NCBI GenBank assembly: GCA_963803975.1
Contig: CAWDOY010000042.1
Coordinates: forward strand, 1-64,000
Length of the DNA stretch: 64,000 nt
Direction of reading: 5' to 3'
Source of the DNA: an uncultured delta proteobacterium
Lineage (GTDB): Bacteria; Desulfobacterota; WTBG01; CAIYCZ01
Positions within the stretch are counted from its first letter, which is position 1. Each line of letters opens with the position of its first letter. Below, piece by piece: positions 32,330 to 49,922 of this stretch. Position numbers and translations under genes: made by a program. The notes beneath the pieces are model-generated. The model searched no databases. It had not been told where the DNA came from and worked only from the letters and a program-made list of their open reading frames with translations.

Positions 32330-34283
32330 ATGAAACTGTTGGACACTGGTTTTATTGGTAACATTGAGATTAAAAATCGTATCGTTATGGCGGCCATGGG
32401 CGGCCATGGGATGCATGAGCCTGACGGAGACTGGGGTGAACGCTATCTGGCTTATTTTGAGGCCAGAGCCCGCGGCGGTGTTGGCCTTATTACGACCGAG
32501 GCGACCTTCGTTTCCCAGGCATTGGAGCCTTTTGCAAAAAGTTTGTTTAACGTGGCCTCTGACAAACATCTGGCTTCGATGCGCCGCCTTGCAGATATAC
32601 TTCATTCCTATAATTGCAGGCTGAGCATTCAGCTGACTGCCGGGTTCGGCCGCGTTGTCCCGTTCCCCACAGTACCCGAAGGCGTTAAGCCGGTTTCGGC
32701 ATCAGAAAACAGTTATTTTTATTTTCCTGACGACCCTGCATGGACAACCAGGGAGATAACGACTGAAGAAGCAGAGGCTCTTGCCCGGGCTTTCGGCTAC
32801 GCTGCGATGCGCTGCCGCGAGGCAGGAGCGGACTGTGTTGAGCTGCACGGCCACGAGGGCTATCTTCTGGATCAGTTCATGACCGGCCTCTGGAACAGCC
32901 GCAATGACCGCTACGGCGGTTCCCGGGAGAAGCGGCTCACCTTTGCCCGTGAATCAATCGAGGCAATCCAGCGCGAAGCCGGCACTGATTTCCCGATTAT
33001 CTACCGCTATGGCATTACCCACTATCTTGAGGGCGGACGGGAAGAAGAGGAAGGGCTGTGGATAGCCGGAGAGCTTGAGAAAATGGGAGTCAGCGCACTG
33101 CACGTTGACGCCGGCTGCTACGAGACGCACTGGTGGCCCCATCCGCCCCAGTATGCACCGCCGGGCTGCCTGGTGGATCTGGCAGGGAAAGTCAAAAAGG
33201 TCAGCAGCCTGCCGGTTATTACCGTAGGTCGTCTGCACTACCCTGATGTGGCTGAAAAAGCACTGGCCGAGGGCAAGGCCGACTTTGTCGCCATCGGCAG
33301 GGGCCTGCTCTCTGAGCCGGAATGGGTGAACAAGGTTCAGAGCAACAGGATCGCTGAGATCATTCCCTGCTTAGGCTGTCATGAAGGCTGCAAGTGGCAG
33401 ATGATAGTCGGGGAACCGACCAGCTGCTCGCTGAACCCCACCACCGGGCATGAAACCGATCGGCAACTTATTCCGCTGAAGCAGAAACGCACTCTCCTGG
33501 TGGTCGGCGGCGGACCGGGTGGCATTGAAGCAGCCCGGGTTGGAGCAGAGCGCGGTTTTGACGTTACCCTGTGGGAGGCCTCTGACCGGCTGGGTGGAAA
33601 TCTCTGGCCCGCTGCAAAGCCTGATTTCAAGCATGACCTTGCAGACTACATAAAATATCTCAATGGACTTGTACGGCGCTTGCCCGTCAATGTTGTGCTT
33701 AATAAAAAGGCCACAGCCGGGGATATCCAAAACTTTGGCGCAGACTATGTTATCCTTGCTACCGGAGCAAACATGGAGCCGCCCCCTTTTAACAGCTGGA
33801 CAACAGATAGATTGCTGACAGTGATCCAGGTGCTGAGCGGCATGGAGCCGCAAGGAGAAAGAATACTGGTCATGGGCGGCGGTATTCTCGGATGTGAAAC
33901 CGCGGTTTATCTGGCGCGCCGGGGCAAGCTGGTTACCATCAGTACCAGGGGGGATGCCGACGCACTGGCTGCAGACCACTTTGACCACAATAACCGTGAA
34001 ATGCTTCTGCTGATGATACAGGCTGCCACTATCAATGTGCTGCCAGGCACGGTGCCGGTAAGGCTTGAAAAAGACGGTGTTGTGGCCAGGCAACAAGGTG
34101 TAGAGACGAAGATTGCAGCTGACAGTCTTGTTTTTGCAGGTCGATTCATGCCGGAAAACAGTCTTAGCAAGGCCTTTGGCGACTAGAGGGAATATTTTCA
34201 GCATTGGTGACTGTGTGGAACCCGGCCGGATTATGGATGCTGTGTGGGGGGCTTTTAAGGTCGTACGAGCAATTGAACAATAG
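32330..34283 (+). CDS. Old-yellow-enzyme family NADH:flavin oxidoreductase with 4Fe-4S and FAD domain (2-enoate reductase/BaiCD-like); frameshift near 34180
   Basis: IKNRIVMAAM, ARARGGVGLI, LHGHEGYLLDQF, N.RNDRYGGS, CLGCHEGC..CSLNP, VVGGGPGG; tail IFSIGDCVEPGRIMDAVW in the next frame. Confidence 0.9.
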
Positions 34284-34570: not shown

Positions 34571-35275
34571 ATGAATAATAATCCCCCGAACAACAGCAAA
34601 AAAACAGTAGTTGTCGCAGGCGCGACAGGAAGGGCCGGCAGATGTATTATAAAAGAATTGTTGCGCAGCGGTTATCGCGTACGGGCACTGCTGGTACCTC
34701 CCTTTGATTCGCCCGATCCGTCAGGGCTCATCCAGCCAGAGATAGAGCTGGTACAAGGAGACCTTGGCTCAGCAGCATCTCTTGAACTGATTATGGAGGG
34801 TGCTGACTATGTGATAAGTGCCATCGGATCAAAAAAACCGTTTAGCAAAAAGGAAAACAACCGGATCGACAACCTGGGCAATCAGAACCTTGCAAGAGCT
34901 GCACAGTCAAAGGGATTGCAGCACCTGGTGGTTATCTCTTCGACGGGCGTTGGTGATAGCAGGGAGGCTGTTCCATGGCTGTACCGCATAGCAATGGGAC
35001 CGGTACTGAAGATGAAGGAAAAATCCGAGAATTTCATCAGGTCCTGCGGCATTGCCTATACGATTATCCGACCCGGGGGATATACGGAAAAAGCATTACC
35101 GGATGATATTGTTTTCGGGGAAGGCGGTAAAATTTCCGGTCTGGTAAAAAGAGAGCAAATTGCCCGCGTATGTGTCGCTGCGTTAAGCAACCCGGCAATG
35201 AGAAACAGGACCTTTGAAGTTGTCAATGCCGCAACCTTGAAAGAAGAGCGACGTAAATTTGTCATAACAGTTTGA
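34571..35275 (+). CDS. Atypical SDR / NAD(P)H-binding protein (NAD_binding_10, BLVRB/NmrA-like)
   Basis: VVAGATGRAG, VQGDL, VISAIGS and YTIIRPGG motifs. Confidence 0.85.
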   Translation: MNNNPPNNSKKTVVVAGATGRAGRCIIKELLRSGYRVRALLVPPFDSPDPSGLIQPEIELVQGDLGSAASLELIMEGADYVISAIGSKKPFSKKENNRIDNLGNQNLARAAQSKGLQHLVVISSTGVGDSREAVPWLYRIAMGPVLKMKEKSENFIRSCGIAYTIIRPGGYTEKALPDDIVFGEGGKISGLVKREQIARVCVAALSNPAMRNRTFEVVNAATLKEERRKFVITV

Positions 35276-35523: not shown

Positions 35524-37899
35524 GTGACGGTGAAAAAGTTTGCTGAATTCATTATTCGTAGGCGCATCCTGATTTTAGTCATCATCAGTATTGTCACCGG
35601 TTTTTTCATGTATGAGCTTACCAGTCTCTCGGTAAAGACAAAAATTGCTGACCTGCTGCCACAGAAACACCCCTACATAAAAGTCCATAATAAAATCAGG
35701 CATATTTTTGGCGGGTCCAATCAGGTACTCATTATGGTCCAGGTCCGCACGGGTGATATTTTCAATCAAAAGACCCTCACCAAGATCCAATGGATTACCC
35801 GCGAGCTTGAAAATATACCCGGAGTTGATCCATACAAAATCAGGTCCATTGCCGTATCAAAGATGAAGACCTTTAAATACACCTCGGGAACCATGCAGAT
35901 TGATCCGCTCATGTATCCCGACATTCCGCGCAATGAACAAGAGATGAATACGCTCCGCGATAATATATACAGCAATCCGCAGTATTACGGGCAAAACGTA
36001 TCCTATGACAGTAAAAAGAGCCTTATCACGGTAGATTTTCTGGAAGAGGACATCGACTACCGTACGGTGTTCAATGAACTCAGCCGTATCAGGCAGCATA
36101 CCGAGGATGAAAACCATATCGTCAGCATTGCCGGCGAGCCAATGCATCTGGGCTATATTGACCAGCTCACGGGCCAGGTTCTGATAGTGCTCGGCGGAAC
36201 GGTTTTCAGCATGATCATAATGCTCTTTATATACTACAAAAGTATTCGGGCAGTGGTTATCCCGGTATTGTCTGCTGCAATAAGCGCTGTCTGGGGGTTG
36301 GGCTTTATGGCCCTTGCCGGGTTTAACCTCGATCCGCTTATACTGGTTTTGCCATTTCTCATTGCCCTTATGACCGCGCGCCATTCCATGCAGTGCTTAA
36401 GCCGTTATCTGGAAGAGTATGCGACCGCTAAAAATATCCAAACAGCAGCAGTAGCGACGATTGAAAGCATGTTCCTTCCCGGCGTTACCAGCATTATTAC
36501 CGATGCGCTGGGCATTGCCCTGGTTGCTATTGCGGTAATACCGGTACTGACAAACATTGCCGTTGCATGCAGTTTCTGGTGCATCGCAACAGTTTTTCTC
36601 TCTGTGATTTTTACCCCTCTTTTACTTTCATTCATTCCAGAGACAAAACGAATGAGAAAGTATATGCAGCGGTCACTGGATCAGGAAAGGCAGGATTATC
36701 GCGACAGATTTCTCAGCATGGTCGGACGCTGGATACCCCGGCGGGGGAAATGGTATGTTACTGCAGTTACTCTTGTTATGGTTATCGTGGGACTTAATTA
36801 TGCCCAGCAGATAAACGTTGGAGATTTTATGCCCGGCTCTTCAATCTTATGGCCCTTTCATAGATACAACAAGGATGCATTCAGGATTACTTTCAGCATG
36901 CCGTTGCTCAATCCGCTTTACATTATTCTTGAGGGCGAGGGGGGAAAATTTGATGACGAAAAAGGAGGCGGCTTTGTTACCCAGGCTGCAACGCTCAGAG
37001 AGATGAACAGGTTTACCCGGTATATGATGCAGCATGAACGGGTGATGTTTGCCATGTCAATTGTTAGTACTGTACCCAGATTTTTAATGTCAACCTATGA
37101 GGATGATCCCCAGTGCTTTCACCTGCCCCGGGAAGACGAAGCCCTGCATTTCATTACCCGCCGACTTCTCCACTCAGGTGAACCCGGCACCTGGGATAAG
37201 TATGTGGACACGGAAGAAACCTATGCAAATATAGTAATTTACTGCCGCGATAAAATGCCCAAAACCATTGAAGGCGTATTTCAGCACATACAGGCGTATT
37301 TAGCCAAAAATCCCGGCCCGCCGGGGGGGAAGTATCGGTTAGCAGGTGGCGCTGTCGGGGTTCAGGCAGCAGTTCGCGAGGTCATCGCAGATGCTCAGAT
37401 ATGGAATCTCATCCTTGCGCTGGGAGGGGTGTGGCTGTTCTGTGCGCTTGAGTTCAAGTCAATCACTGCCGGGCTTATACTTACCATACCGCTTGCCATT
37501 TCCAATGTCCTAACGTTTGCCCTCATGGGTGCCTACCAGATCGGGCTCACGGTTAATACCTTTCCGGTGGCTTCCGTGGGCATCGGGCTGGGGGTGGATT
37601 ACGGCATCTATTTTGTCGGCCGGCTGGTGGAAGAGAAAGAGAAAGGAGTAACGCTTACCGCAGCAATATACAAAGCACTCACCACCAACGGCAAATCTAT
37701 TATTCAGATAGCAACAACTATTACGCTCGGGCTTGTTTTGTGGGCATTTTCACCCCTGAAATTCCAGGCTGAGATGGGCATCCTGCTGGCTATTCTCTTG
37801 TTTTTGAATATGCTTGGTGCTCTTTTTCTTGTGCCGGCGTTGATCTGCATCCTTAAGCCAAAATTTATAACTAATGTTCATCCAGCCACGCAAGAATAG
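35524..37899 (+). CDS. MMPL/RND-family transporter
   Basis: Two halves, each 1 TM + periplasmic loop + 5 TM; GIGLGVDYGIY motif. Confidence 0.9.
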   Translation: MTVKKFAEFIIRRRILILVIISIVTGFFMYELTSLSVKTKIADLLPQKHPYIKVHNKIRHIFGGSNQVLIMVQVRTGDIFNQKTLTKIQWITRELENIPGVDPYKIRSIAVSKMKTFKYTSGTMQIDPLMYPDIPRNEQEMNTLRDNIYSNPQYYGQNVSYDSKKSLITVDFLEEDIDYRTVFNELSRIRQHTEDENHIVSIAGEPMHLGYIDQLTGQVLIVLGGTVFSMIIMLFIYYKSIRAVVIPVLSAAISAVWGLGFMALAGFNLDPLILVLPFLIALMTARHSMQCLSRYLEEYATAKNIQTAAVATIESMFLPGVTSIITDALGIALVAIAVIPVLTNIAVACSFWCIATVFLSVIFTPLLLSFIPETKRMRKYMQRSLDQERQDYRDRFLSMVGRWIPRRGKWYVTAVTLVMVIVGLNYAQQINVGDFMPGSSILWPFHRYNKDAFRITFSMPLLNPLYIILEGEGGKFDDEKGGGFVTQAATLREMNRFTRYMMQHERVMFAMSIVSTVPRFLMSTYEDDPQCFHLPREDEALHFITRRLLHSGEPGTWDKYVDTEETYANIVIYCRDKMPKTIEGVFQHIQAYLAKNPGPPGGKYRLAGGAVGVQAAVREVIADAQIWNLILALGGVWLFCALEFKSITAGLILTIPLAISNVLTFALMGAYQIGLTVNTFPVASVGIGLGVDYGIYFVGRLVEEKEKGVTLTAAIYKALTTNGKSIIQIATTITLGLVLWAFSPLKFQAEMGILLAILLFLNMLGALFLVPALICILKPKFITNVHPATQE

Positions 37900-37991
37900 G
37901 AAAAGCAAAGCAGCATGAATAATAGATATCGCTGAACATTAGGAGATTTATTGGAATGTGCAGCAAACACAAAACGAAAGGAGGGGTTCCC

Positions 37992-39605
37992 ATGAAAGAC
38001 AAATTTTTTATCCCCGGCGTCATCGCAGGGGTACTGTTATTCTTTTCCGTGCTTCCCCGGCACTGTTCAGCTTCGCTGGATTTTTTCGATGGAAGACTCA
38101 GGGTAAAGGGGAGTTTGTATGAATTCATGATTTACCGTACGCAAGTAACCGACGAAGAGCGGCAGTACCGGGACACCGAATGGGGGCTTATGCGCACCAA
38201 AGGTACCCTTGAGCTGCTGTACAAAGCGGTTGAGAATGACAAGCTTCTCGTAAATCTATTCGGGTTTTTCAAGTACTGGCATGAATCAGTACCGGACTTT
38301 GATAACAAGTACCGGCGCAGTATTGCACCGCAGGACAGAAAAAAATATCAAGGGCCTTTATTTGACCAGGATGACTGGATCAATGAGGCCTATGCAGATA
38401 TTTACTATGGGCCCTGGAACATCCGGCTGGGTAAACAGATCGTGTTCTGGAGCGAGGTAGAGATGGTGCGCACCATTGACCGGATCAATACCCTTGATTT
38501 GCGCTATACCACCCCCGGAATTGACCCGTGGGACGAAATAAAGCTGGGACTGTGGATGATGCGCGGGTTCTACAACTCTACCCTGCCGGGGCAGCTTGTT
38601 TTTGAATGGATCTGGATTCCGGGAGATTTTGAGCAGGTCAGGACCCCAACCGACGGGACCAGCATGGCCGGCGGCGTTGTTAGACCGGAGGGTCCGGAGG
38701 GTCGCAGGCCGCGGCCATTTGGGCAGAAAGCATTGGCCGACCTTTTGTTTCAGCGGGCACGGCCGGCTGTTACTCTGCGCAATTCATCCTGGGCCTTAAG
38801 AATCCGGGGCAATTCAGGGGTTAATCTTTTCAAAGAGGATTATCTGCTTGACTGGACCGTAAGCTGGTTTCACGGCATGGAGACAAGTCCTGTTGCCCGC
38901 ACAAAAACCCTTGGGAAACCCAGCGCAACCAATTTAAACCCCAACACCCTGAATGGACTTATGGGGAGGAATGCGGTGAGCCGTGTCTTCGGTCTGCCAC
39001 TCCCGCAGGTGCCCTATTACAGTCTTTTCGAGTATAAATTTTTTGATGCAATCGGGGCAAGTTGTCAAACCCTCGTACCGGCAATAGAGTCGGTTGTGCG
39101 CGGTGAACTGTCTTATGAAATTGGCGTGCCCATCAACACAACCTTTCCCAAGAACATTGAGCCATCGGGCGACTTCATAACCGGCAACTCAGAACGTGAC
39201 CAGGTGAATGTTGGTCTTACTGTTGATCGACCGGTCCTCATCCCCTGGCTCCAGGAACGCGGGTGGGCCGCATTTGATTGTTCTTTAGGCTGGAGTGCGC
39301 AGTGGCGGCTTGGCAATGTCAGCCGCAGGTGGTCATCGTTTGGCTGGGGGGATAAGTCCCAGAGCAATTTGTCGGCATTGGTTAAAGGCAAGTTTTATCA
39401 TGAAGAGTTCCGGCCGGTAATTCGCTTTTTGTACAATACCCGCAACTGGGGCTACGGCGTCATAGCCTGTCAGTATGCGCCTGGAGAGCATATGCGCTAT
39501 GAAGCAGGATACCTGGGATTTTTTGCCAAAGATACGACCGACTCAAGTGAAGCCTCAATGGCACGCGGGGATTGCCTCTATTTTCGTATCGGGTATGAGT
39601 TTTAA
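37992..39605 (+). CDS. DUF1302-like outer-membrane beta-barrel
   Basis: Signal peptide; EAYAD, IRLGKQIVFWSE, DRIN.LD; C-terminal YFRIGYEF beta-signal. Confidence 0.8.
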   Translation: MKDKFFIPGVIAGVLLFFSVLPRHCSASLDFFDGRLRVKGSLYEFMIYRTQVTDEERQYRDTEWGLMRTKGTLELLYKAVENDKLLVNLFGFFKYWHESVPDFDNKYRRSIAPQDRKKYQGPLFDQDDWINEAYADIYYGPWNIRLGKQIVFWSEVEMVRTIDRINTLDLRYTTPGIDPWDEIKLGLWMMRGFYNSTLPGQLVFEWIWIPGDFEQVRTPTDGTSMAGGVVRPEGPEGRRPRPFGQKALADLLFQRARPAVTLRNSSWALRIRGNSGVNLFKEDYLLDWTVSWFHGMETSPVARTKTLGKPSATNLNPNTLNGLMGRNAVSRVFGLPLPQVPYYSLFEYKFFDAIGASCQTLVPAIESVVRGELSYEIGVPINTTFPKNIEPSGDFITGNSERDQVNVGLTVDRPVLIPWLQERGWAAFDCSLGWSAQWRLGNVSRRWSSFGWGDKSQSNLSALVKGKFYHEEFRPVIRFLYNTRNWGYGVIACQYAPGEHMRYEAGYLGFFAKDTTDSSEASMARGDCLYFRIGYEF

Positions 39606-39675
39606 CCTGCACGGGTGCGTGCCCGTTCAGTGGTTGTTTGGGCAGGACGCTGTATTCAAAACACAGGAGGAGATT

Positions 39676-40941
39676 ATGAAAAAAGTGTTGATGAGCATGA
39701 TTGTTCTACTGTCATCGTGGTGTGTCAGCCTTGCACCAGGTGTTGCCGGCGAGATAACATTTCCGACCCGCAGCTATGAAGGTGAAGAGCTGGCAAAGGT
39801 GCGCGAGTGGGAAAAGACTTGGGCGGGCAAGAAAGTAGCAACTGAAAATGCTGATCAGGTCAAAGACTTTCTGCATGAGGCTGTATATAACACACTAAAA
39901 AATCCCAAGGGTTTCGGTGCAGAGTCGCTGTGGTTCAGTGTAGTGCCGTATCGGCCTTATACAATATCGTCGGGCATGATTGCCGCCACTAAAAAAAATG
40001 CGCCTCAAAGCAAGCTCGATAATGACGGCATGCTGGCGGGGTATGGCGATGTTGCCGGGATCCCCTTTCCACAGCCCAAAACAGGTCTTGAGATGGCCTG
40101 GAATTTTGACGGCAACTCCCATGGAGACAGTCACCAAGAGGAGAACATTGGTGATGTTGTTAATTGCCAGCAAAAAACCGAGCGTAGTGCAGGAATGCTT
40201 CGCTGGGAATTGTACTGGATCGGACGAGTAGATTCTGAGCCGCTTCCCCGCATTCCCGAAAAAGAAAATCAGCGGGGCATAGCACGTTCATGGTTTCAGC
40301 GTCACACGGCCCCGGTTGATTTTGCTGATAGCACAATGCTAGAGCTCAAATATCTGGACCATACAAAACAGGAAGATCTATGGGTTTACACAGTGATGTT
40401 CAGAAGGATCAGGCGTTATACAGCAAGCCAGCGGACCGACTCAATTGACGGGACCGACATGGTCTTTGACGATCAGGACGGATGGTACACGCATGTTACC
40501 CGTAACACCTACGACAGTAAAGGCAGGGCTGATCTTCTGGTTGCACGACATCAGGATGCCAAGCAGCTCCAGAGGGTCAAAGGCCAGGCATTCTGGAACG
40601 GTGTGCAGCGCGAACGGGTTAATCACTGGGTCGTTGAGGTAAAAAACAAGGAGAAGGGATATCTGTACATTAAGCAGATATGGTACCTGGACCCTGAGAC
40701 CTGGCAGATGAACTTCAAGGTAATGTACAATCGCAAGGGTGAGCTCTGGAAAATGTATGAACTGTTTTATGATGAGTATCCGACAGCCTGTGGTGAAAAA
40801 ACGTCATTGTTCAGCGCTGAGCATTCGGTCGATCTGATCCGCCATCACGGTAGCCCAAATATCCGTGAAGTGAAGAATGTGGGAGCATCTATACGCCCTG
40901 ATTATTTTCAGACTAAGAGCCTGAAGGACAAAAGTTATTAA
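39676..40941 (+). CDS. DUF1329-family periplasmic protein (LolA-like)
   Basis: GIPFPQPKTGLEMAWN, LWVY...RRIRR, RTD..DGTD and YNRKGELWK motifs. Confidence 0.85.
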   Translation: MKKVLMSMIVLLSSWCVSLAPGVAGEITFPTRSYEGEELAKVREWEKTWAGKKVATENADQVKDFLHEAVYNTLKNPKGFGAESLWFSVVPYRPYTISSGMIAATKKNAPQSKLDNDGMLAGYGDVAGIPFPQPKTGLEMAWNFDGNSHGDSHQEENIGDVVNCQQKTERSAGMLRWELYWIGRVDSEPLPRIPEKENQRGIARSWFQRHTAPVDFADSTMLELKYLDHTKQEDLWVYTVMFRRIRRYTASQRTDSIDGTDMVFDDQDGWYTHVTRNTYDSKGRADLLVARHQDAKQLQRVKGQAFWNGVQRERVNHWVVEVKNKEKGYLYIKQIWYLDPETWQMNFKVMYNRKGELWKMYELFYDEYPTACGEKTSLFSAEHSVDLIRHHGSPNIREVKNVGASIRPDYFQTKSLKDKSY

Positions 40942-40981
40942 GCAAGAAATGGGCAGCCATAGCTATTGTTGAGGGTTATAA

Positions 40982-42040
40982 ATGATGACAAGGATACAAA
41001 TAAAATTGGTTCTTATACCGGCTGTGCTGGTCATGGTTTTCGGTTGTGACAGGTTTGACCGTTCCAGGATACAGATGCCGGCTTTCAACTTTGTCACGAG
41101 AGAAAATCTGCATAGCATTGCCCGGGTTGATGCGCAGCATATCTGGGTGAGCGGTAATTACGGGACTATCCTGTGCAGTGCCGATGGCGGGAAGACATGG
41201 GAAAAGCAAAACAGCGGCATCGCTGAGGAACTGCTGGGCTGTATATCGTTTGTTAACCCTCAAGAGGGCTGGGCTGCCGGCGTCAGGGGAACAATTGTTC
41301 ATACAGCTGACGGAGGAAAAACCTGGGGGGTGCAGCCAAGCGGTATAGAGCAGGATATCCATGATCTTTTTTTCCTGGACGCTCACTATGGCTGGGCGGT
41401 CGGCGAGAGCGGGACGGTTTTGCATACAGATGACGGCGGCAAACACTGGAAGCGGCAACGAGAGCCGGAGGATAGATACTTTAATGATGTTTTTTTTGTT
41501 GATCGCAAAACCGGGTGGATCGTTGGTGAATTCGGGACCATCTTACATAGTGCTGATGGGGGTGCAACCTGGCAGCCACAAGAGTGTCCAGAGCTTGCTG
41601 CTCTTGTAAAAAATGCTGAATGGGACCGGCCGCTGCCCGCGTTGTACGGGACGTATTTTCCTGATAAGGACCGGGGCTGGATCGTCGGGATGGATGGTGT
41701 CATCATCAGGACGGAAAATGGGGGAAAGACCTGGGCCATGGTAAAGCCGGTTTCCGAAAAACCCCTGTACTCTATTGTAATGCACGGCGCAAAAGGATGG
41801 GCGGTGGGCAATGAGGGCGTTTATGTAATGACTGAGAATGGCGGGGACACCTGGTCAGTAAAAAATCAGGCGCTGAAAACCAAATTCTGGCTGCGCGCGG
41901 TGTCCTTTGGGGATGATAAGCGCGGGCTTATTGTTGGCGCCCAGGGCACCATTGCGCTAACTGATGACGGGGGCTTTTCCTGGAAGCTGATATCAGGCTA
42001 CAGCTACGATATGAAAGAATTCGGGCTGGCTGATTTCTAA
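40982..42040 (+). CDS. YCF48-like/BNR-repeat beta-propeller lipoprotein
   Basis: Lipobox VFGC; about 7 repeats of GW.VG..GTI.(H/R)T.DGG.TW. Confidence 0.9.
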   Translation: MMTRIQIKLVLIPAVLVMVFGCDRFDRSRIQMPAFNFVTRENLHSIARVDAQHIWVSGNYGTILCSADGGKTWEKQNSGIAEELLGCISFVNPQEGWAAGVRGTIVHTADGGKTWGVQPSGIEQDIHDLFFLDAHYGWAVGESGTVLHTDDGGKHWKRQREPEDRYFNDVFFVDRKTGWIVGEFGTILHSADGGATWQPQECPELAALVKNAEWDRPLPALYGTYFPDKDRGWIVGMDGVIIRTENGGKTWAMVKPVSEKPLYSIVMHGAKGWAVGNEGVYVMTENGGDTWSVKNQALKTKFWLRAVSFGDDKRGLIVGAQGTIALTDDGGFSWKLISGYSYDMKEFGLADF

Positions 42041-42229: not shown

Positions 42230-44021
42230 ATGAACAGACGCACAGTCAATAACCTTCTCTGTATTATTCCCCTGGCTGCTGGTCTTCTGCTGGGTTCATT
42301 GTCTTGCAGGCCCGCCGGGAAAAAAATCGGCGTGCTGTATGTACTCCACGGAGGTATGAAGACCAATGGGCCCCAGTACCTGTGGGATGCCGTGGTGCAG
42401 CAGTTTTCTTATGAACACAACCATTCTATTTATAATTATGTTATCTGGGATCCTTCCCAGTGGCCAAATGTTTTGGATCGGAACACAACCGATTTTGCAA
42501 GGCGGTTTCTGATGATGTATGACTTTGGATATGAGCGCATGGGGGGCATCGATCCTTATCCGGACATCAGTGATAAGCAGCTGGCGCACTTGAAGACTGA
42601 ACTGGAAAACAACACGCGCGGCTTGAAATTTGAAGTGGACTGGGTTGGTTATTTAAGCGCAGACGATGTGGAGCATTACCCGTATCCCCGTTTTATTTAT
42701 AATATTCCCGATGAACAATACCGGGTATCCGCCCGCCAGCGGAGTGTCAAAATGTACCTACTGCGGGGAAGGAGAGCCGGACGGCCCCTGGGAGACTTGT
42801 GATCCTGAGCGCTACAACGCAGATGGACCTGTCGAGCGGCTGCTTAAAAAGGGGGTCACGAGTATCATTATGGTTGATATGACTACCAGCGGGGTTCGCT
42901 TTTCCAAAACTTTTGATGTGATCCAGATGACCAAGCTGGCTCTCAATAAATGGAACAATGAACACGGAACCTCTATCCCCCTGGTGTGGGTCAATGACCC
43001 CAATAATGTAATGGAGCGATCATATCCAACAAAACCCGAAGGATGGACACGCATCAAAAAAGCTCCTGAGGTAGACCCGCAGGTTCCCCTGGAAGGAAAT
43101 CCCAATCCAATTGCGGAAGATCCAATGCTCGCTCAATTGCACGCAGAAGGTATAGAAAAGGGCTTTTCCGATTCGGTTCCAGATAATGCTACCGGTGTCA
43201 TTCTGTTTAACCATGCTCTGCACGACTATAATGAGTATTTTGACCCTAAAATCGATGACACTCTTATCTTAAATAAAAATATTAAGGCCTTGCTTATTGA
43301 GCGGCACCCTGACATTGATCCCGACCGTATCATAGGAGCCTTTGGAGGGATCATGGAAGTAAATCCGGTACATGGCCGTGAGGAACGGACGCGGGAAATG
43401 CGCGGAGAAACCTATGGCTATGCATGGCTTTACGAGAGCGACAAGCAAATGCCTGGTGGAGAATGGGGCTACCGATACTGGGATGCTTTAGAATATTTAA
43501 AGAACTGTGGTGTTAAGCACATTGTTATTGGATTCCCGCAGATGATTACTGACAATAACTTAAACCTTATTGAAGTACCGCAGCAGATTGGCAAGGAGAT
43601 CGGTATCAAGACCTGGGCAAAATATGACCAGGGTGATTTTACTTTGTACCCGGAAGTCGGCCACCCCTTTGCAGATTACTGGGGAGTCTGGGTTGATACT
43701 GATTGCGGTGAAGCGGCGTGCTGCTTTGAAATGGGGGGATGCGCTGATGGCCGGCCATATCCGCCGCCACGGCAGACCCCGATTGATGCGCCGCGTGGGG
43801 ATTTGGACCCCTCCCTTGCCTTTGACCTGAGCGCCTACGGGCATCTGGGGTTTGATGAAACCGGGACCAGCGGACCTCCTGATCCTGAAAAACCAGTACA
43901 GGATCAGTACACCGGCACCTGGGATTTGTATAGACCGGCAAATGACGACCCCCGGCTGGGAGAGCTGCTGGCACGTCATGTATTAGATGCTGCTCTTAAA
44001 ACACTGCAACCGGAGAAGTAG
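42230..44021 (+). CDS. Lipoprotein with a class II chelatase (ferrochelatase/HemH-like) fold; frameshift ~42715
   Basis: Lipobox SLSC; KIGVLYVLHGG, LLKKGVTSIIMVD, GVILFNHAL and GVKHIVIGFPQMITDN..LIEV occur in the order of HemH GVLL.NLG / G....V.LP / LLFSAHG / G.K.V.V.P..F.SDHLETL.EI. Confidence 0.55.
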
Positions 44022-44054
44022 AAGAATACTATATAGAAAACCAAGGAGAGTCAT

Positions 44055-44762
44055 ATGAAAGCAATCCCCTATTATGAACGTATGCAGGAACATCTGGCAC
44101 CTTTTAATCTGTCCCCAATGAAAGAATATAACGGAGATGATATCACACAATTTGAAAACATTAAGACGGACATGATGACACAGCTTCTGCGGGCATATAA
44201 AGCTGACAAGTTAGACAAAATTGTCACGCTTACCACTGATATCATGGAAGGAAAAATTTTCGTTTATGGCACCACGATTGTTCCAACGGATGAATACCCA
44301 CTCCCCATCTTTACCTCTGAAATAGTTCAAGCGGTAAACCATCTCAGTTTACGGGTGGATTTTATCCCCCTGGCAGATTGTGCCCGTGACCTTGATTATA
44401 TGGAAAAATACATGATGCCCATGGAAGACCTGTGGAAACAACATAGAGATATTGAGGGATCCGGGATTGAGCGCTATACCTGGCAGCGGGTTATGCTTTC
44501 ACCTTTTTACACATATGGAAAATATAAATATACCATTGAAAATATTGAGGAAACGGCATTGCAAATTACTATTGACTATCTGAAGCTCTATATAAAACTC
44601 TGGTCCGAGGTTCAAAAGGCAGATCCCGGCTATATGAAGTTGCTTAATGAAAGAAAGAGCGTAATGCTGAATACCATGCTGGAGAATGACCCGGGTGAAG
44701 GGCCTCTAAAACAAGCCTTTGGCAAAGAGGCAGCCCACAAAATTCTGTCACTTCTTTTTTAA
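44055..44762 (+). CDS. Ferredoxin-dependent bilin reductase / red chlorophyll catabolite reductase (RCCR)-like protein
   Basis: P..EYPLPIFTSEIVQ...VDFIPLAD...DYMEKY, R.MLSP, YLKLY..LW and ENDPG...LKQAFGKE.A..I...LF match the recalled FDBR/RCCR pattern. Confidence 0.8.
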   Translation: MKAIPYYERMQEHLAPFNLSPMKEYNGDDITQFENIKTDMMTQLLRAYKADKLDKIVTLTTDIMEGKIFVYGTTIVPTDEYPLPIFTSEIVQAVNHLSLRVDFIPLADCARDLDYMEKYMMPMEDLWKQHRDIEGSGIERYTWQRVMLSPFYTYGKYKYTIENIEETALQITIDYLKLYIKLWSEVQKADPGYMKLLNERKSVMLNTMLENDPGEGPLKQAFGKEAAHKILSLLF

Positions 44763-44825: not shown

Positions 44826-45281
44826 ATGAAAAATTATTTTTTATTACTGTCTGTGGCACTTTTTCTTTATGCCGGCGCCGGCTTTGCTGGCGAACAACCC
44901 CCGGTACGCGGGGTAGTTGAAAAAACAGGTGTTGACCTCAAACAGCAGGTTGTAAGGATACGCGGATACGAAGGTGTTTCTCCCCTGAACCTTTTCATAG
45001 AGCCGGGTACGGTGGTTATTTGGCTCAACCAGTATCAGGGAAAGATAAAAATAACCTTCCCTTCAAAAAGGGTGACGCTGGCATGTAAGAGCCCGGTTAA
45101 TTTTTCGCTCAATAACCAGGGGTTCTTTGAATCAAACGCTGTCGAGTTTGGTGCGGTTGCCAGCCTTTGTTTTATTGAATGTGGATCATTTGACTATATT
45201 ATAGAGCGAGCGCCTGTTTCGTCCACGGCAAAATATGAAGGCTTCAGATTTGAAGGAAAGATTATTGTTAAGAAAAAATAG
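44826..45281 (+). CDS. Secreted cupredoxin-like protein (copper ligands not evident)
   Basis: Signal peptide; P.NL.IEPGTVVIWLN, CF..CGSFDY and C-terminal G.IIV pattern. Confidence 0.55.
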   Translation: MKNYFLLLSVALFLYAGAGFAGEQPPVRGVVEKTGVDLKQQVVRIRGYEGVSPLNLFIEPGTVVIWLNQYQGKIKITFPSKRVTLACKSPVNFSLNNQGFFESNAVEFGAVASLCFIECGSFDYIIERAPVSSTAKYEGFRFEGKIIVKKK

Positions 45282-45296: not shown

Positions 45297-45836
45297 ATGG
45301 TAGTACATGAACTAACACCGGAAGAAAGAAATCAGATGGTGGAGAAGGCGCTGATAAGAATGAAAATCAAGAGACAACATCTCTCCCGCGAAGAGCTGGA
45401 GAGGGCAATCATTGACTATCTCAGCAAAAAACAGCCTTGCAGTTTGGCAACCTGCGATAGGGACTGCACCCCCCGCATATCGGTAGTAGACTATGTCAAT
45501 GATGGTCTTACTATCTATATTCTCAGCGAAGGCGGGGATAAATTTAAAAACCTTAAAGAGAACAACAGGGTTGCCATTGGAATCGGTACCGGCTCGAAGG
45601 CTTTAAAAACAAGAGGTGTTAATATCTGGGGTATTGCCGAGGTTATTAGTGATGATATGCCCGAGTTTGCCCATGGTATAAAAATCTTACAACCTATACT
45701 GGATGACATGGCAGAGGTCTTGGGTTCACCTATTCAGATACCCAAGGGAATTCTCAGGCTGATCAAGGTTACGCCAACTAAAATAGTTTACCATCATACC
45801 ATGAAGGGGATTAAACATGCTGTTTGGGAAGCATAA
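45297..45836 (+). CDS. Pyridoxamine-5'-phosphate-oxidase-like split-barrel protein
   Basis: CSLATC...PRIS.V.Y, KFKNLKENNRVAI, GV.IWG.AE and LIKVTP motifs. Confidence 0.85.
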   Translation: MVVHELTPEERNQMVEKALIRMKIKRQHLSREELERAIIDYLSKKQPCSLATCDRDCTPRISVVDYVNDGLTIYILSEGGDKFKNLKENNRVAIGIGTGSKALKTRGVNIWGIAEVISDDMPEFAHGIKILQPILDDMAEVLGSPIQIPKGILRLIKVTPTKIVYHHTMKGIKHAVWEA

Positions 45837-46057: not shown

Positions 46058-46918
46058 ATGGCAGATAAGTTCACTGAAGTGCGTATGGTCGATAACTTTT
46101 ACCAGACCTCCAGTTTTTTTCCTATGCCGGTTGTTCTTGTGAGCACCCTGGCAGAGTCAGGGCAAACCAATCTGGGGCCCTACTCACTCTGTTTTCCTCA
46201 CAATATCACCGGAGGAAAAGATCATGCCATGATGCTTATTGCCCGCGGCACAAGCAATACGGCCACGAATATAATCCGGACCAGGGTGTGTGCCCTTAAC
46301 TTTATCCCGCATAAAAAGAAATACATGAAAAACTGCGTCATGCTGGGGTATCCGGGCGAGACCACTGAGGAAAAGATGAAAAACAGTATTTTTACCCTGA
46401 TACCATCTACCCGGCATGAAACACAAAAATCCGCGCCCTATCCTGACATTGTAGAAGAAGCTGTTCAAGTTTTTGAATGTACCTGGGATGACAGCTATCC
46501 TTTAAAGCCGCGCGAGGATCTAGTAGAATCCCACTTTCTGCTGCGTATTGATAAGCTTGTCATGAAGGAGAAATGGAGAGATTGCCTGCTTAAGGGTAAA
46601 GGGTTTCCCAGTTTGCCGATTGATTATGGATACCGGGATAATGTGCGCTTCTGGTTTTCACGGCAATGGCGGCCCTATGCGGTCAACATCCCCAAAGAAA
46701 AAGGCAACAAAATTGAAACGGTAAGGTATGCCTGTGACCGATTTGACCCGGCTATCACCTGGGAAGATGCAGCCTGCGCAAAAATAGTGAAAGTGCCAAA
46801 CATATTTTTAAATAAAGTTATCAGTGGCGTGGTGAAAACAGCAAAAGAGCAGGGGATTACGGTGATTACCCCTGAGTTTATGGACAAAATCCGGGATAAG
46901 CGCTCAACTGAGAAATAG
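46058..46918 (+). CDS. Flavin-reductase-like (DIM6/NTAB) split barrel fused to a C-terminal PCP_red (BchB C-terminal-like) domain
   Basis: PMPVVLVST....TNLGPYS, SNTA.NI, P..VEEA...FEC; tail ITWEDAACAKIVKVPNIFLNKVISGVVKTAKEQGITVITPEFMDKIR. Confidence 0.75.
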   Translation: MADKFTEVRMVDNFYQTSSFFPMPVVLVSTLAESGQTNLGPYSLCFPHNITGGKDHAMMLIARGTSNTATNIIRTRVCALNFIPHKKKYMKNCVMLGYPGETTEEKMKNSIFTLIPSTRHETQKSAPYPDIVEEAVQVFECTWDDSYPLKPREDLVESHFLLRIDKLVMKEKWRDCLLKGKGFPSLPIDYGYRDNVRFWFSRQWRPYAVNIPKEKGNKIETVRYACDRFDPAITWEDAACAKIVKVPNIFLNKVISGVVKTAKEQGITVITPEFMDKIRDKRSTEK

Positions 46919-47048: not shown

Positions 47049-47081
47049 GCAGTTCATTGAGGTTATGGTGAATAGATGATC

Positions 47082-47121
47082 GGCAGCCCTGTCATGAATG
47101 GCGGGGCTGCCGGTTTTGTTT
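47082..47121 (+). terminator. Intrinsic terminator
   Basis: CGGCAGCCCTG/CGGGGCTGCCG stem followed by TTTTGTTT. Confidence 0.65.
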
Positions 47122-47338
47122 AGATATAAGAGGATGCAGGGGATATTTCATCCCCTTTTTTAGCAAGGGAATCTTTGAAACCATTGACCATAACAAAACC
47201 TTAAACTACATCGATTCGGCATAACCAATTTAATAAAATCATATTGTGGAATTACGGACAATTTTACAGGAAAATATTCATATAAAAACCTTGACGGGCA
47301 ACATGTTTGCTTATATTAGGTTGACAATAGTAGAATAA

Positions 47339-47359
47339 GCATAAAAGACAGTGTTGGGT
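47339..47359 (+). other. attI-like recombination point at the head of the cassette array
   Basis: GCATAAA-N7-GTTGGGT; GTTGGGTGGC is the exact reverse complement of GCCACCCAAC (48403-48412) at the end of cassette 1, and no attC hairpin precedes it. Confidence 0.55.
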
Positions 47360-47393
47360 GGCTGGTGCAGGCACACCATCGGAGGTAGATACG

Positions 47394-48398
47394 ATGGCGA
47401 TTTTCTTGAAAGCGAAAAACCACGACAAGCGAAGTTTAAGGGCAAGTCTCCGTACTTCTCCTTTGCGGCTCGTGCTGACGGAATTTATAAAAGCAAGCCT
47501 CGCCCATTCTGCCTGCCGCTTGACCATGCAGAAGAAAATCTGTTTCCTGAAATTCGCCAAACCGCCATAGCCCACTTTGCTGCACACAGCATCAAATGGC
47601 ATGATGGGCAAAACGGGAAGCCAAGTAATCACCTTTGCGACTCCCAAGTCTGCTGCGTCAATTTCCTTTTTCCATTTACTAATCTGCCTCACGCGTTGGC
47701 AGAAGTGTTGCGCCACCTTTCCCACCATTCGAGAAATGCTCCCAATAGAAAGCGGGCAATACGTCACCTTCGAGTGGATTGGCCAAGAAAATTACTTGGG
47801 CGAGAAAATCTCCCGCAATGGCAAACGCACACGCGGCGCGAATTTCACAGCGCGGATGCGGCGGTTATGTTTGAGCGAACAGACGGAAAGCGACAGATTG
47901 TTTTGATTGAGTGGAAGTATACCGAGTCATATGGCGGCACATCGCTGAAAATTGCTAAAAGCGGCACAGACCGCACGACCATTTATAAGGCACTCTTCAA
48001 ACGCGATGATTGTCCTATCAATAAAGAACTGTTACCCGACTTCGACTCGCTTTTCTATGAGCCGTTTTATCAGTTTGTGCGGCAACAGTTGTTTAGCCAA
48101 TGAAATGGAACGAGCGCAGGAATTGGGCGCAAATACGGTAAGCGTGCTTCATATCGCCCCTGCTCATAACACTGATTTTCGCAAAGTGACCTCACCCAAA
48201 TTAGCAAAACTTGGCGAGACAGCCACAGAAGTTTGGAAAAAACTGGTGCTGACTCGCGGTAGGTTTATTAGTGTAAATACCGAGCAACTATTCGGTAGCC
48301 TATCCGCCGAGCAATTTCCCGAACTGCATGTGTGGCTAGAATATATCGGCATGAGATATGCCTGGGTTCGAGAAGGCACGGCAACACTTCCAAAATAA
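47394..48398 (+). CDS. Cassette 1: PD-(D/E)xK putative restriction endonuclease (PGN_0703-like); several frameshifts
   Basis: NHLCDSQVCCVNFLFP; SADAA...LIEWKYTE; FYQFVRQQ.LA. Confidence 0.7.
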
Positions 48399-48405
48399 AG
48401 GCGCC

Positions 48406-48467
48406 ACCCAACACGGGGTTGCAGGCGACGGGGAAAACCGCCCCGCGCCTGAACCCGACCGTAAGCT
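48406..48467 (+). repeat. attC site 1
   Basis: ACCCAAC...CGGGGTTGCAGGCGACGGGG/CCCCGCGCCTGAACCCG...GTAAGCT imperfect palindrome with extrahelical bases. Confidence 0.85.
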
Positions 48468-48483
48468 CACTTTGGAGGCATCG

Positions 48484-49922
48484 TTGAGTCCGCGAGTGTT
48501 CATCTCCTACAGCTGGTCATCACCGGGGCACCAAGCTCGTATCCGCCAGTGGGCTGAGCAGATGGTGAGCGACGGCGTTGACGTCGTTCTCGATGTCTGG
48601 GACCTAAAGGAAGGAGATGACAAGTATGCGTTCATGGAGAAGATGGTCACGGATGAGTCTGTCACCCACGTGCTTGTCTTCTCCGATTCGGAATATGCCG
48701 CCAAAGCCGACGCCCGCAAGGCAGGTGTCGGTACCGAATCACAGATCATCTCGCGTGAGGTGTACTCGAAAGTTAAACAATCCAAGTTTATCCCGGTTGT
48801 CTGCGAATTCGACGACTCAGGCGAACCATTCCTGCCCACCTTCCTTAAGTCCCGTATCTGGATCGACTTCTCCAGCCCCGAGGCTAGCGAACGAGAACTG
48901 GGAGCAACTGATCCGGCTCCTCTATGGCAAGCCGGCTCACGAGAAGCCGACTCTGGGAAAGGCGCCCACCTACGTCACAACGGATGTCACTGTTCCCGCC
49001 AGCCCAGCGGTTGCGAAGTTCGCGGCACTTAAGCAGGCCATCATTCAGGAAAAGCGGGGACTGAAGCTTTATCGGCAGGACTTTCTCGACGCGTGTTACG
49101 TTTACTGCGGATGCTCTGCGCATCAGAGAGCGGCCTGACGTCACGAACATGGGCGAGCGGGTTTTGGAGGACTGCGGAAAACTCAAACTCGTGCGCGACC
49201 ATATCGTGGATTGGGTCTTGCTCGAATCCGAGGTCAATCCCTCAGAAGAGTTCGGCGAGGCGCTAATTGCCATGCTTGAGCGGTTGCTTGAACTCAAGTC
49301 CAGGCCGCCAGAAGTCAATTCTTGGAGCGACGTGTGGTTCGAGGCGCATCGTGTGTTCGTCTACGAGACCTTCCTCTACATCGTATCGCTGCTCTGATCA
49401 AGACCGGCTCGTTCGGTATTCTTCACCTTATTCTCACTAGCCACTATCTCTTGCCGGAGACAGAGGCGCATGGACCCGAACCGATTCGTCACGTTCGACG
49501 CATTCTACGGCTACTCCGAGACGCTACAGGTGCTCGCGCCCGAAGGACAGAAGCTCTACGCACCTGCGGCAGAGCTTATCAAGCGACAGGCGGATCGCAC
49601 GGACTTGCCTTTCGCAGAGGTTATGCAGGCAGAGTTGCTCGTCCTGATGATGGCTTTCATCACCGATGGCGCTCGGTGGTATCCACAGACACTTCACTAT
49701 TCATCGCGTGCAGGCGCATTCCCGTTCTTCGTGAGGGCTGCACAGCACCGCAACTTCCAGAAGCTCGCAAAGATCACAGGAATTGAGAGCGCAGACAAAC
49801 TTCGTGAAGCCGTGAAAGCAGGGCATCAGCGGTTGGATGTGAACCAGTGGCACAACTTCTGGATGAACGATCGATCGTTCTGGGACAGCATGAACATGGA
49901 TGCACTGGATACGCTTAAGTGA
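48484..49922 (+). CDS. Cassette 2: SEFIR/TIR-domain protein (several frameshifts)
   Basis: PRVFISYSW...DGVDVVLDVWDLKEGDD...FME...YAAKAD.RKAGVGTE..KFIPVV; helical C-terminus spread over ORFs 48617, 49149, 49322 and 49470. Confidence 0.85.

Follow-up and report, generated by a model that had tools for sequence, protein, structure and literature searches.

The window, by which we mean the whole 64-kb stretch of DNA analysed here, carries on its + strand a cluster of genes around a protein of the FDBR/RCCR fold, P0001. The recurrence of each neighbour is given over 14 ortholog loci, namely the window and 13 others, four of which lie on contigs shorter than 7 kb.

32330..34186, + strand: OYE-family Fe-S flavoenzyme with the motif HGHEGY (profile search, motif)
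34571..35275, + strand: NAD(P)-binding extended-SDR-like protein, 2/14 loci (profile search)
35524..42040, + strand: MMPL/RND, DUF1302, DUF1329 and YCF48-like genes, a putative uptake/transport set, 4/14 loci (profile search)
42230..44021, + strand: exported lipoprotein-like protein with a predicted class II chelatase (ferrochelatase) fold, 8/14 loci (models, neighbourhood)
44043..44048, + strand: AAGGAG, Shine-Dalgarno-like, 6 nt 5' of the P0001 ATG (sequence)
44055..44762, + strand: P0001, FDBR/RCCR-fold protein, 235 aa (ORF call)
44826..45281, + strand: protein of 151 aa with a signal-peptide-like N-terminus and no Pfam or NCBIfam match, 3/14 loci (sequence, profile search)
45297..45836, + strand: PNPOx-type split-barrel flavoprotein, PF01243 at E=1.3e-11, 9/14 loci (profile search)
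46058..46918, + strand: flavin-reductase-like domain followed by a PCP_red-like domain, both weak and below cut-off, 6/14 loci (profile search)
47078..47125, + strand: terminator-like site with a 17-bp stem, 3' of the cluster, a consensus match only (terminator scan)

P0001 is a real gene with a bilin-reductase/RCCR fold. Its match to PF05996 (Fe_bilin_red; E=2.2e-16, 60.6 bits against a gathering cut-off of 31), its 108 homologs at 51-96% identity and a predicted model of pLDDT 96 with structural Z scores of up to 27 place it far beyond chance. The motifs from which an earlier, sequence-only reading had argued for an RCCR-branch enzyme are all present in the open reading frame (LPIFTSEIVQ at residues 83-92, DFIPLAD at 102-108, DYMEKY at 114-119, ENDPG at 210-214 and FGKE at 222-225), and no signal peptide is visible in the sequence. 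That reading had pointed to two family profiles; the first, PF05996, matches, and the second, PF06405 (RCC_reductase), gave no match to P0001 at E<=0.1, although it scores 58 bits with P0192 and 39 bits with P0144. The GC content of the gene is 41%, against 51% for the 64-kb window.

The predicted model is an alpha/beta/alpha sandwich with a central antiparallel sheet and a helical lid, as expected of the FDBR/RCCR/CPO fold. Z scores run from 27.1 to 12.4 for 43 entries of this fold, and the next, unrelated entry reaches 4.8. GtPEBB is the best structural match (Z 27.1, 1.9 A, 225 residues aligned), with HY2 at 26.1, PcyA at 25.8, PebA at 24.7, RCCR at 23.6 (2.5 A, 229 aligned) and HemF at 18.8; Foldseek E-values with the same model do not separate the FDBR and RCCR families, and rank RCCR fourth. 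A sequence search of the PDB with P0001 returned tomato HY2 and GtPEBB as its only matches, and a profile built from 67 chosen relatives (66/67 match PF05996 and 10/67 match PF06405, at E<=0.01) scored 110 bits with GtPEBB, 100 with HY2, 70 with PcyA, 65 with PebA, 52 with RCCR and 25 with PebS. Comparison with the RCCR structure upheld the shared fold while ranking RCCR below PebB and HY2. As P0001 lacks a PF06405 match, and profile and model both score it closer to PebB/HY2, its assignment to the RCCR family has to be given up.

No named subfamily accommodates P0001, and all NCBIfam FDBR equivalogs are far under cut-off. RCCR membership was rejected on the missing PF06405 match, Z scores lower than those of PebB, HY2 and PcyA, and an AU test of the corresponding tree (p=0.002). 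As a PcyA, P0001 would need the Glu76/His88/Asp105 triad, which here reads Leu59/Gly72/Glu89, and it has no match to PRK02816 at E<=0.001. For PebB/HY2, the Arg215 column holds Met208, PRK13250 gives 35.9 bits against a cut-off of 327, and the AU test rejects a clade with the canonical FDBRs; for PebA/PebS, PRK13247 gives 34 bits against 263, and P0001 is placed outside that clade. P0001 is likely FDBR-like in its mode of action, yet belongs to no named FDBR/RCCR subfamily. Plants and cyanobacteria use enzymes of this kind for the reduction of bile pigments and of products of chlorophyll breakdown. According to the available parts of PMC10151467 and PMC13193486, every enzyme known with this fold has a tetrapyrrole as its substrate.

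Residue conservation was assessed over 94 full-length orthologs, comprising P0001 and 93 of P0002-P0097 (three short rows were dropped and P0098-P0109 were not used). The principal positions are these.

44319..44321, + strand: Glu89, in the column of PcyA Asp105, GtPEBB Asp99 and RCCR Glu154, on strand 85-92, 94/94 orthologs (alignment, model)
44352..44360, + strand: Arg100 (93/94, lineage-specific among the rows compared) and Asp102 (94/94, the family-wide Asp of a D-x-x-P motif) (alignment)
44688..44690, + strand: Asp212, in the column of GtPEBB Asp219, HY2 Asp256 and approximately RCCR Asp290/291, between helices 191-211 and 215-222, 94/94 orthologs (alignment, model)

The Arabidopsis RCCR chain (numbered as chain index +43, an offset fixed by the title of the F218V entry) reads PNFVVELIQ and DLPHRKD...DYLKEYY, in line with the ACD2 motifs given in the sequence-only reading, and its Glu154 lines up gap-free with Glu89 in a motif match made by eye rather than by residue-level superposition. 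As had been proposed, P0001 retains in Glu89 and Asp212 the two acidic positions, Glu154 and Asp291, which we take to be catalytic in RCCR; both are invariant in all 94 orthologs. The absence of a PcyA-type His was also correctly noted, the His88 column (HY2 Asp116) being Gly72 here and Gly or Ala in 93/94 orthologs. The PcyA Asp105 column is Glu89, the Glu76 column is Leu59, and the PebB/HY2 Arg215 column is Met208, with Met in 76/94 and Arg absent among the four commonest states. Four basic residues, K52, K156, R200 and K201, are invariant, and Gln92 is kept in just 61/94. The loop after Asp102 is three residues longer, the same as in RCCR and HY2, and its likeness to HY2 is at least as great as that to RCCR. 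Asp102 itself was ruled out as the counterpart of Arabidopsis HY2 Asp116, which Table 2 of PMC13446030, among the parts of that paper available, sets in the His88 column. In GtPEBB, Asp99 and Asp219 are essential, and lie on the central strand and on the loop between the lid helices (available part of PMC6755814); Glu89 and Asp212 are predicted to occupy the same structural elements in the P0001 model.

Glu89 cannot serve as a marker of RCCR, because pre-1 enzymes carry Glu at the Asp105 column (available part of PMC13446030), two host paralogs on the FDBR side of the tree (C24b and C40) have Glu at the Glu89 column, and the three bacterial PF06405 proteins examined have Ala at the Glu154 column. 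In those three rows the bacterial PF06405 family (Microbulbifer and relatives; P0192, P0231-P0260) has His at the His88 column and no acid at the Glu154 column. Among the paralogs of the host genome the catalytic columns vary widely.

Two trees were built. The full tree of 102 rows contained P0001, 7 orthologs, 13 host paralog types, 16 PebA, PebB, PebS and PcyA references taken from annotated plasmids, phages and algae, 13 bacterial PF06405 proteins (the seed of this set has RCCR as its best PDB match) and 52 distant matches, and the subset tree retained 58 rows after 44 long or redundant branches had been removed. Both are quick, unrooted searches that omit plant RCCR, HY2, PcyX and pre-PcyA, and their supports are SH-aLRT only. 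One strong split is found in both (98% with 102 rows, 99% with 58), separating the canonical FDBRs and five host paralog types (four in the subset) from the RCCR-likes, the P0001 orthogroup (100% support) and eight host paralog types. P0001 lies on the RCCR side of this deepest split of the family, in agreement with the tree of PMC10151467, the available part of which puts Ca. Schekmanbacteria sequences in an uncharacterised, RCCR-containing outgroup. Schekmanbacteria protein P0093, 57% identical to P0001, falls inside its orthogroup (100% support), and two more Schekmanbacteria proteins group with the P0001 relatives P0111 and P0151. Two further uncharacterised clades, with hosts unnamed, appear in the part of PMC13193486 available, and its supplement may contain sequences of the P0001 lineage.

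The P0001 orthogroup is most closely related to other paralogs, among them two ferredoxin fusions of the same 98% clade (P0127 and P0131), and P0001 is far from PcyA in both trees, among whose rows there is no pre-PcyA sequence. An AU test rejected a single clade of the P0001 orthogroup and the RCCR-likes (p=0.0019; the RCCR-likes were represented by 8 bacterial PF06405 proteins and no plant RCCR), and likewise one with the canonical FDBRs (p=4e-5, HY2 being absent from the tree). The suggested RCCR branch therefore stands as a side of the 98-99% split, but falls as a sister relation to the RCCR-likes.

The host genome (98.1% complete, 2.1% contamination) contains 22 loci of the FDBR/RCCR fold, P0001 being one, a setting that the sequence-only reading missed. 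Five are split by frameshifts, and together they represent about 14-15 types at ~20-40% identity. Near-identical paralog loci on host contigs C4/C31, C24/C36 and C39/C40 (82-100% identity, often frameshifted) may reflect recent duplication or strain mixing in the assembly. PF05996 matches number 6-22 per genome in 32/42 genomes of the class, and the orthogroup of P0001 itself is found in 12/42. In a phylum sample of 161 genomes, five match at E<=1e-12, all of the host's order, and none of the 156 others does. Near-identical DNA occurs in freshwater and sediment metagenomes.

Three other protein families follow this distribution. Chelatase-like proteins are present in 27/32 FDBR-positive genomes of the class, the OYE ortholog in 25/32 and HemF-like proteins in 28/32, against 0/10 FDBR-negative genomes for each, although this amounts to a few independent events and not 42, because the genomes are kin. 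Genome G013 (95% complete, from a family otherwise 16/17 positive) lacks these three families as well as the FDBR-likes, and offers a natural comparison for finding the remaining parts of the pathway.

Divergent HemF-like proteins, which have the same fold as the FDBRs, number 1-5 per genome in 28/42 genomes and are confined to those bearing FDBR-likes (for example L061:6216-7001, C46:13889-14584 and C29:7415-8086); one lies two genes away from a P0001 ortholog. The host genome has two HemF-like and five ferrochelatase-family matches. Nitrogenase-like pairs occur at host C3:156900-171400, beside ferrochelatase-family genes, and at C50:23800-32300, ~4 kb from where the OYE ortholog occurs a second time. 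One host paralog pair has a BchE-like radical SAM gene next to it, and geranylgeranyl-reductase-family genes also lie beside paralogs other than P0001; these labels, like those of the nitrogenase-like, HemF-like and ferrochelatase-family proteins, are all below equivalog cut-offs. Other host paralogs neighbour thiolase, SDR, sulfatase, AOR and TetR genes.

The P0001 cluster itself contains no ferredoxin gene. Elsewhere, a ferredoxin domain is fused N-terminally to the FDBR-like domain in P0127, P0131 and P0173, and small two-motif ferredoxin ORFs adjoin paralogs on host contigs C4, C31, C8 and C25; from these fusions and neighbours we infer that P0001 would depend on ferredoxin. On C25 (L028:7663-14663) a paralog pair precedes a ferredoxin and a set of corrinoid methyltransferase genes (B12 protein, URO-D family, MtrH, RACo). 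The paralog at L033:7658-8449 (C24, with an identical copy on C36) has an N-terminal hydrophobic anchor and no Asp in its D-P motif, and is possibly exported or non-catalytic.

The neighbours of P0001 recur in shuffled order across the 14 loci. The chelatase-like protein is broken into two ORFs in the window by one extra base near 42714-42719 and is intact in orthologs (~600 aa); since contigs of three runs lack the extra base, the break probably reflects either a misassembly or a change in the strain. It has no Pfam match and no PDB match by single-sequence or profile search. Its model is poor (pLDDT 40.7), and with this caveat class II chelatases take the first five places among its structural matches (Z 9.1-10.6), the top Foldseek matches are ferrochelatases (E ~1e-4) and the Atlas lead stands at 0.84.

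The OYE accompanies P0001 orthologs in 6/14 loci within the stretches fetched and lies on the same contig within ~13 kb in 9/14. Its best models, BilR-long and BaiCD, score about equally and far below cut-off (BilR 357 bits against 750), and it is ~30 aa shorter than its orthologs. HGHEGY is found in six of the seven orthologs examined, the seventh not matching the search pattern. Assignment to BilR or BilV was rejected, since the motif is neither HGDR (BilR) nor AHAH (BilV). The split-barrel protein was likewise rejected as HutZ/HugZ or an F420 biliverdin reductase, the PPOX/F420 and HutZ/HugZ models all being sub-threshold, and in the PDB it has four weak matches, to uncharacterised split barrels. 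AOR (aldehyde:ferredoxin oxidoreductase) genes surround the ortholog in 4/14 loci, and no globin-labelled gene was found among the neighbours scanned. A promoter scan did no better than chance, with 10 found against 8.8 expected, and an Atlas search gave a recognition of 1664, under the trust level. Parts of the cluster are overlapped by the RNA-library contigs X18 and X19, which would at most hint at its transcription. Just 3' of the terminator, positions 47351-49922 hold a REase-ARP restriction-type nuclease and an apparently frameshifted TIR/SEFIR gene, a probable defence island.

No classical oxygenase partner was found, as had been claimed: haem oxygenase (PF01126) is absent from 42/42 class genomes, and the host genome (98% complete, control positive) has no PaO (PF08417). 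The host genome also lacks HemS matches, its HutW-type matches are all below cut-off, and it has neither a type I nor a type II reaction centre. A PF06405 search of the host genome gave 0 matches but is uninformative alone, because the control also matched nowhere. The label of sulfate reducer was rejected, as there is no dsrA match in the host genome (where no control genome passed the cut-off). Host C14:214000-223881 (L079) carries an alternative-complex-III-like cluster followed by cbb3-like ccoN (frameshifted) and ccoO, and COX1-family matches occur in 3/42 class genomes. The description of the host as an anaerobe needs qualifying: with a cbb3-like oxidase and no dsrA match it is at most a putative strict anaerobe, and some oxygen chemistry in the host is conceivable.

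Our preferred reading, to which we assign a rough probability of 0.48, is that P0001 is a ferredoxin-fed reductase of an unstudied lineage which, as part of a predicted uptake-and-reduce module, reduces a single double bond in a tetrapyrrole imported by the host and derived from haem or chlorophyll. In broader terms, the substrate is likely a haem- or chlorophyll-type pigment scavenged by the host, which P0001 would reduce along a so far undescribed route. The DUF1302/DUF1329/YCF48/MMPL set would carry the pigment across the envelope, and its binding or demetallation would fall to the exported chelatase-fold lipoprotein. Once the pigment is bound in the cytoplasm, Glu89 would supply it with a proton and Asp212 would hold a catalytic water in place, as do Asp99 and Asp219 of PebB, with a 2[4Fe-4S] ferredoxin as the presumed donor of two single-electron transfers to the pigment via a radical. 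Reduction of other bonds would be left to the OYE, split-barrel and flavin-reductase neighbours, and the ~14 paralog types, with their differing pocket residues, would serve different bonds or pigments. Since the Arg of PebB/HY2 (Met208 here) and the His88/Asp116 donor (Gly72) are both missing, the regiochemistry would differ from the A-ring reactions of PebB/HY2 and from those of PcyA.

Several features suggest that a pigment made by other organisms is imported and reduced step by step: three tetrapyrrole-type folds are kept or lost as one, the gene cluster is of an uptake type, more than one reductase is present and the acid pair is intact. The reading is weakened by the lack of any macrocycle-opening route found, an OYE motif unlike that of BilR or BilV, the poor chelatase model and the AOR context of 4/14 loci. 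Moreover, DUF1302/DUF1329/MMPL sets are also present in steroid and aromatic degraders, which counts against pigment uptake.

Among the alternatives, it is unlikely, though it deserves serious attention, that P0001 is biosynthetic and reduces an intermediate of an endogenous, undescribed tetrapyrrole made with the HemF-like, chelatase-like, nitrogenase-like and B12-radical-SAM proteins. The folds of the co-distributed proteins are biosynthetic ones, the host genome has yielded no ring-opening enzyme, and a cyclic substrate is feasible because pre-3 variants can bind porphyrins (available part of PMC13446030). However, the P0001 orthogroup is patchy (12/42) and copy numbers vary from 6 to 22, which fits a range of substrates better than a single pathway, and P0001 sits beside an uptake-type cluster and the gene of an exported lipoprotein.

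Slightly more improbable again is a re-use of the fold for a planar, hydrophobic non-tetrapyrrole of steroid, aromatic or flavonoid type, or a P0001 that binds or carries its ligand without turnover. Such a role would accommodate the wide paralog differences at catalytic columns, the absence from P0001 of PcyA His88/Glu76 and PebB Arg215, the near-equal standing of BaiCD and BilR as models of the OYE, and the thiolase, SDR, sulfatase, AOR and TetR genes beside other paralogs; it sits poorly with an acid pair invariant across the orthogroup, with ferredoxin fusions in a sister lineage, and with the joint presence or absence of three independent tetrapyrrole-type folds (FDBR, chelatase and HemF). 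A functional RCCR, reducing red chlorophyll catabolite from algae or other microbes, is very improbable: Glu89 in its ExxQ motif at the Glu154 column, the longer loop after Asp102 (shared with HY2), the side of the split and the excretion of RCC by some algae (available part of PMC9306834) are outweighed by the missing PF06405 match in P0001 (0 also in the host genome, where the control matched nowhere), AU p=0.002, Z below PebB, HY2 and PcyA, Gln92 in just 61/94 orthologs and no PaO in the host genome.

The P0001 lineage was previously known as a tree outgroup and was not characterised, as far as the available literature goes, and in the open literature, which leaves aside subscription papers, we found no account of the FDBR-fold expansion or its gene module. 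In the available part of PMC10151467, the known enzymes of the fold are all described as ultimately oxygen-dependent, and FDBRs are proposed to postdate oxygenic photosynthesis. Directly relevant to this proposal is a class in which matching genomes carry 6-22 copies each, haem oxygenase is absent and paralogs fall to either side of the split. A 2026 preprint, in the part available, calls the prokaryotic role in chlorophyll degradation still unknown and covers PAO-linked types, and its main text does not contain 'anaerob', 'Desulfo' or 'sediment'. It is doubtful, but worth stating, that the class represents the microbial sink so far missing for chlorophyll- and haem-type pigments of anoxic sediments, working through an oxygenase-free, ferredoxin-fed battery of FDBR-fold enzymes, with photosynthetic bilin reductases and RCCR as recruited offshoots of an older, oxygen-independent radiation. 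If true, this would contradict the published proposal that enzymes of the fold all depend on oxygen. P0001 is small and soluble with a defined acid pair, making the question testable by the standard anaerobic FDBR assay, and new regiochemistries would help in making bilin chromophores.

Finally, P0001 may be set beside the systems it most resembles. PebB and HY2 (GtPEBB, 6QX6/6QWQ; tomato HY2, 6KMD/6KME) are its best matches (profile 110/100 bits, Z 27.1/26.1, rmsd 1.9-2.0 A) and share with it an acid at the Asp99 column, an Asp at the Asp219/Asp256 column and a D-P-G motif. Unlike them, P0001 has Glu rather than Asp or Asn at the central column, Met208 (76/94) for Arg215 and Gly72 for HY2 Asp116, lies on the other side of the deepest split with a canonical-FDBR clade rejected (in a tree from which HY2 is absent), and has no haem oxygenase or PebA partner. 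With RCCR (Arabidopsis ACD2; 2ZXK/3AGA; PF06405) it shares the fold (Z 23.6, rmsd 2.5 A), a Glu at the Glu154 column in P-x-F-x-x-E-x-x-Q, a D-x5-D loop, a C-terminal Asp and the same side of the split; it differs in lacking a PF06405 match and a PaO, and in a structural identity of 13-14%. Nor is its orthogroup sister to bacterial RCCR relatives such as that of Microbulbifer (AU p=0.002).

The Ca. Schekmanbacteria outgroup sequences of Rockwell et al. 2023 (PMC10151467) may include P0093, the Schekmanbacteria protein that shares the P0001 orthogroup; the available part of that paper uses these sequences as an outgroup only, without function, context or copy number. The pre-1 pre-PcyA enzymes (PMC10151467, PMC13446030, as available) resemble P0001 in a non-photosynthetic host, Glu at the Asp105 column and no His88 or Glu76. 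Their clusters carry haem oxygenase and BBAG globins, whereas haem oxygenase is missing from 42/42 class genomes and the neighbours scanned include no globin-labelled gene, and they usually have Ser at the Asp256 column, where P0001 has Asp212. In the gut reduction of bilirubin by BilR and BilV (available parts of PMC10769871, PMC13252198 and 10.64898/2026.06.10.731317), for which an FDBR-fold protein is not described there and from which the neighbouring OYE departs in its HGHEGY motif and score (357 bits against 750), anaerobes likewise reduce a scavenged tetrapyrrole stepwise, using OYE Fe-S flavoenzymes of the same architecture as the OYE beside P0001.
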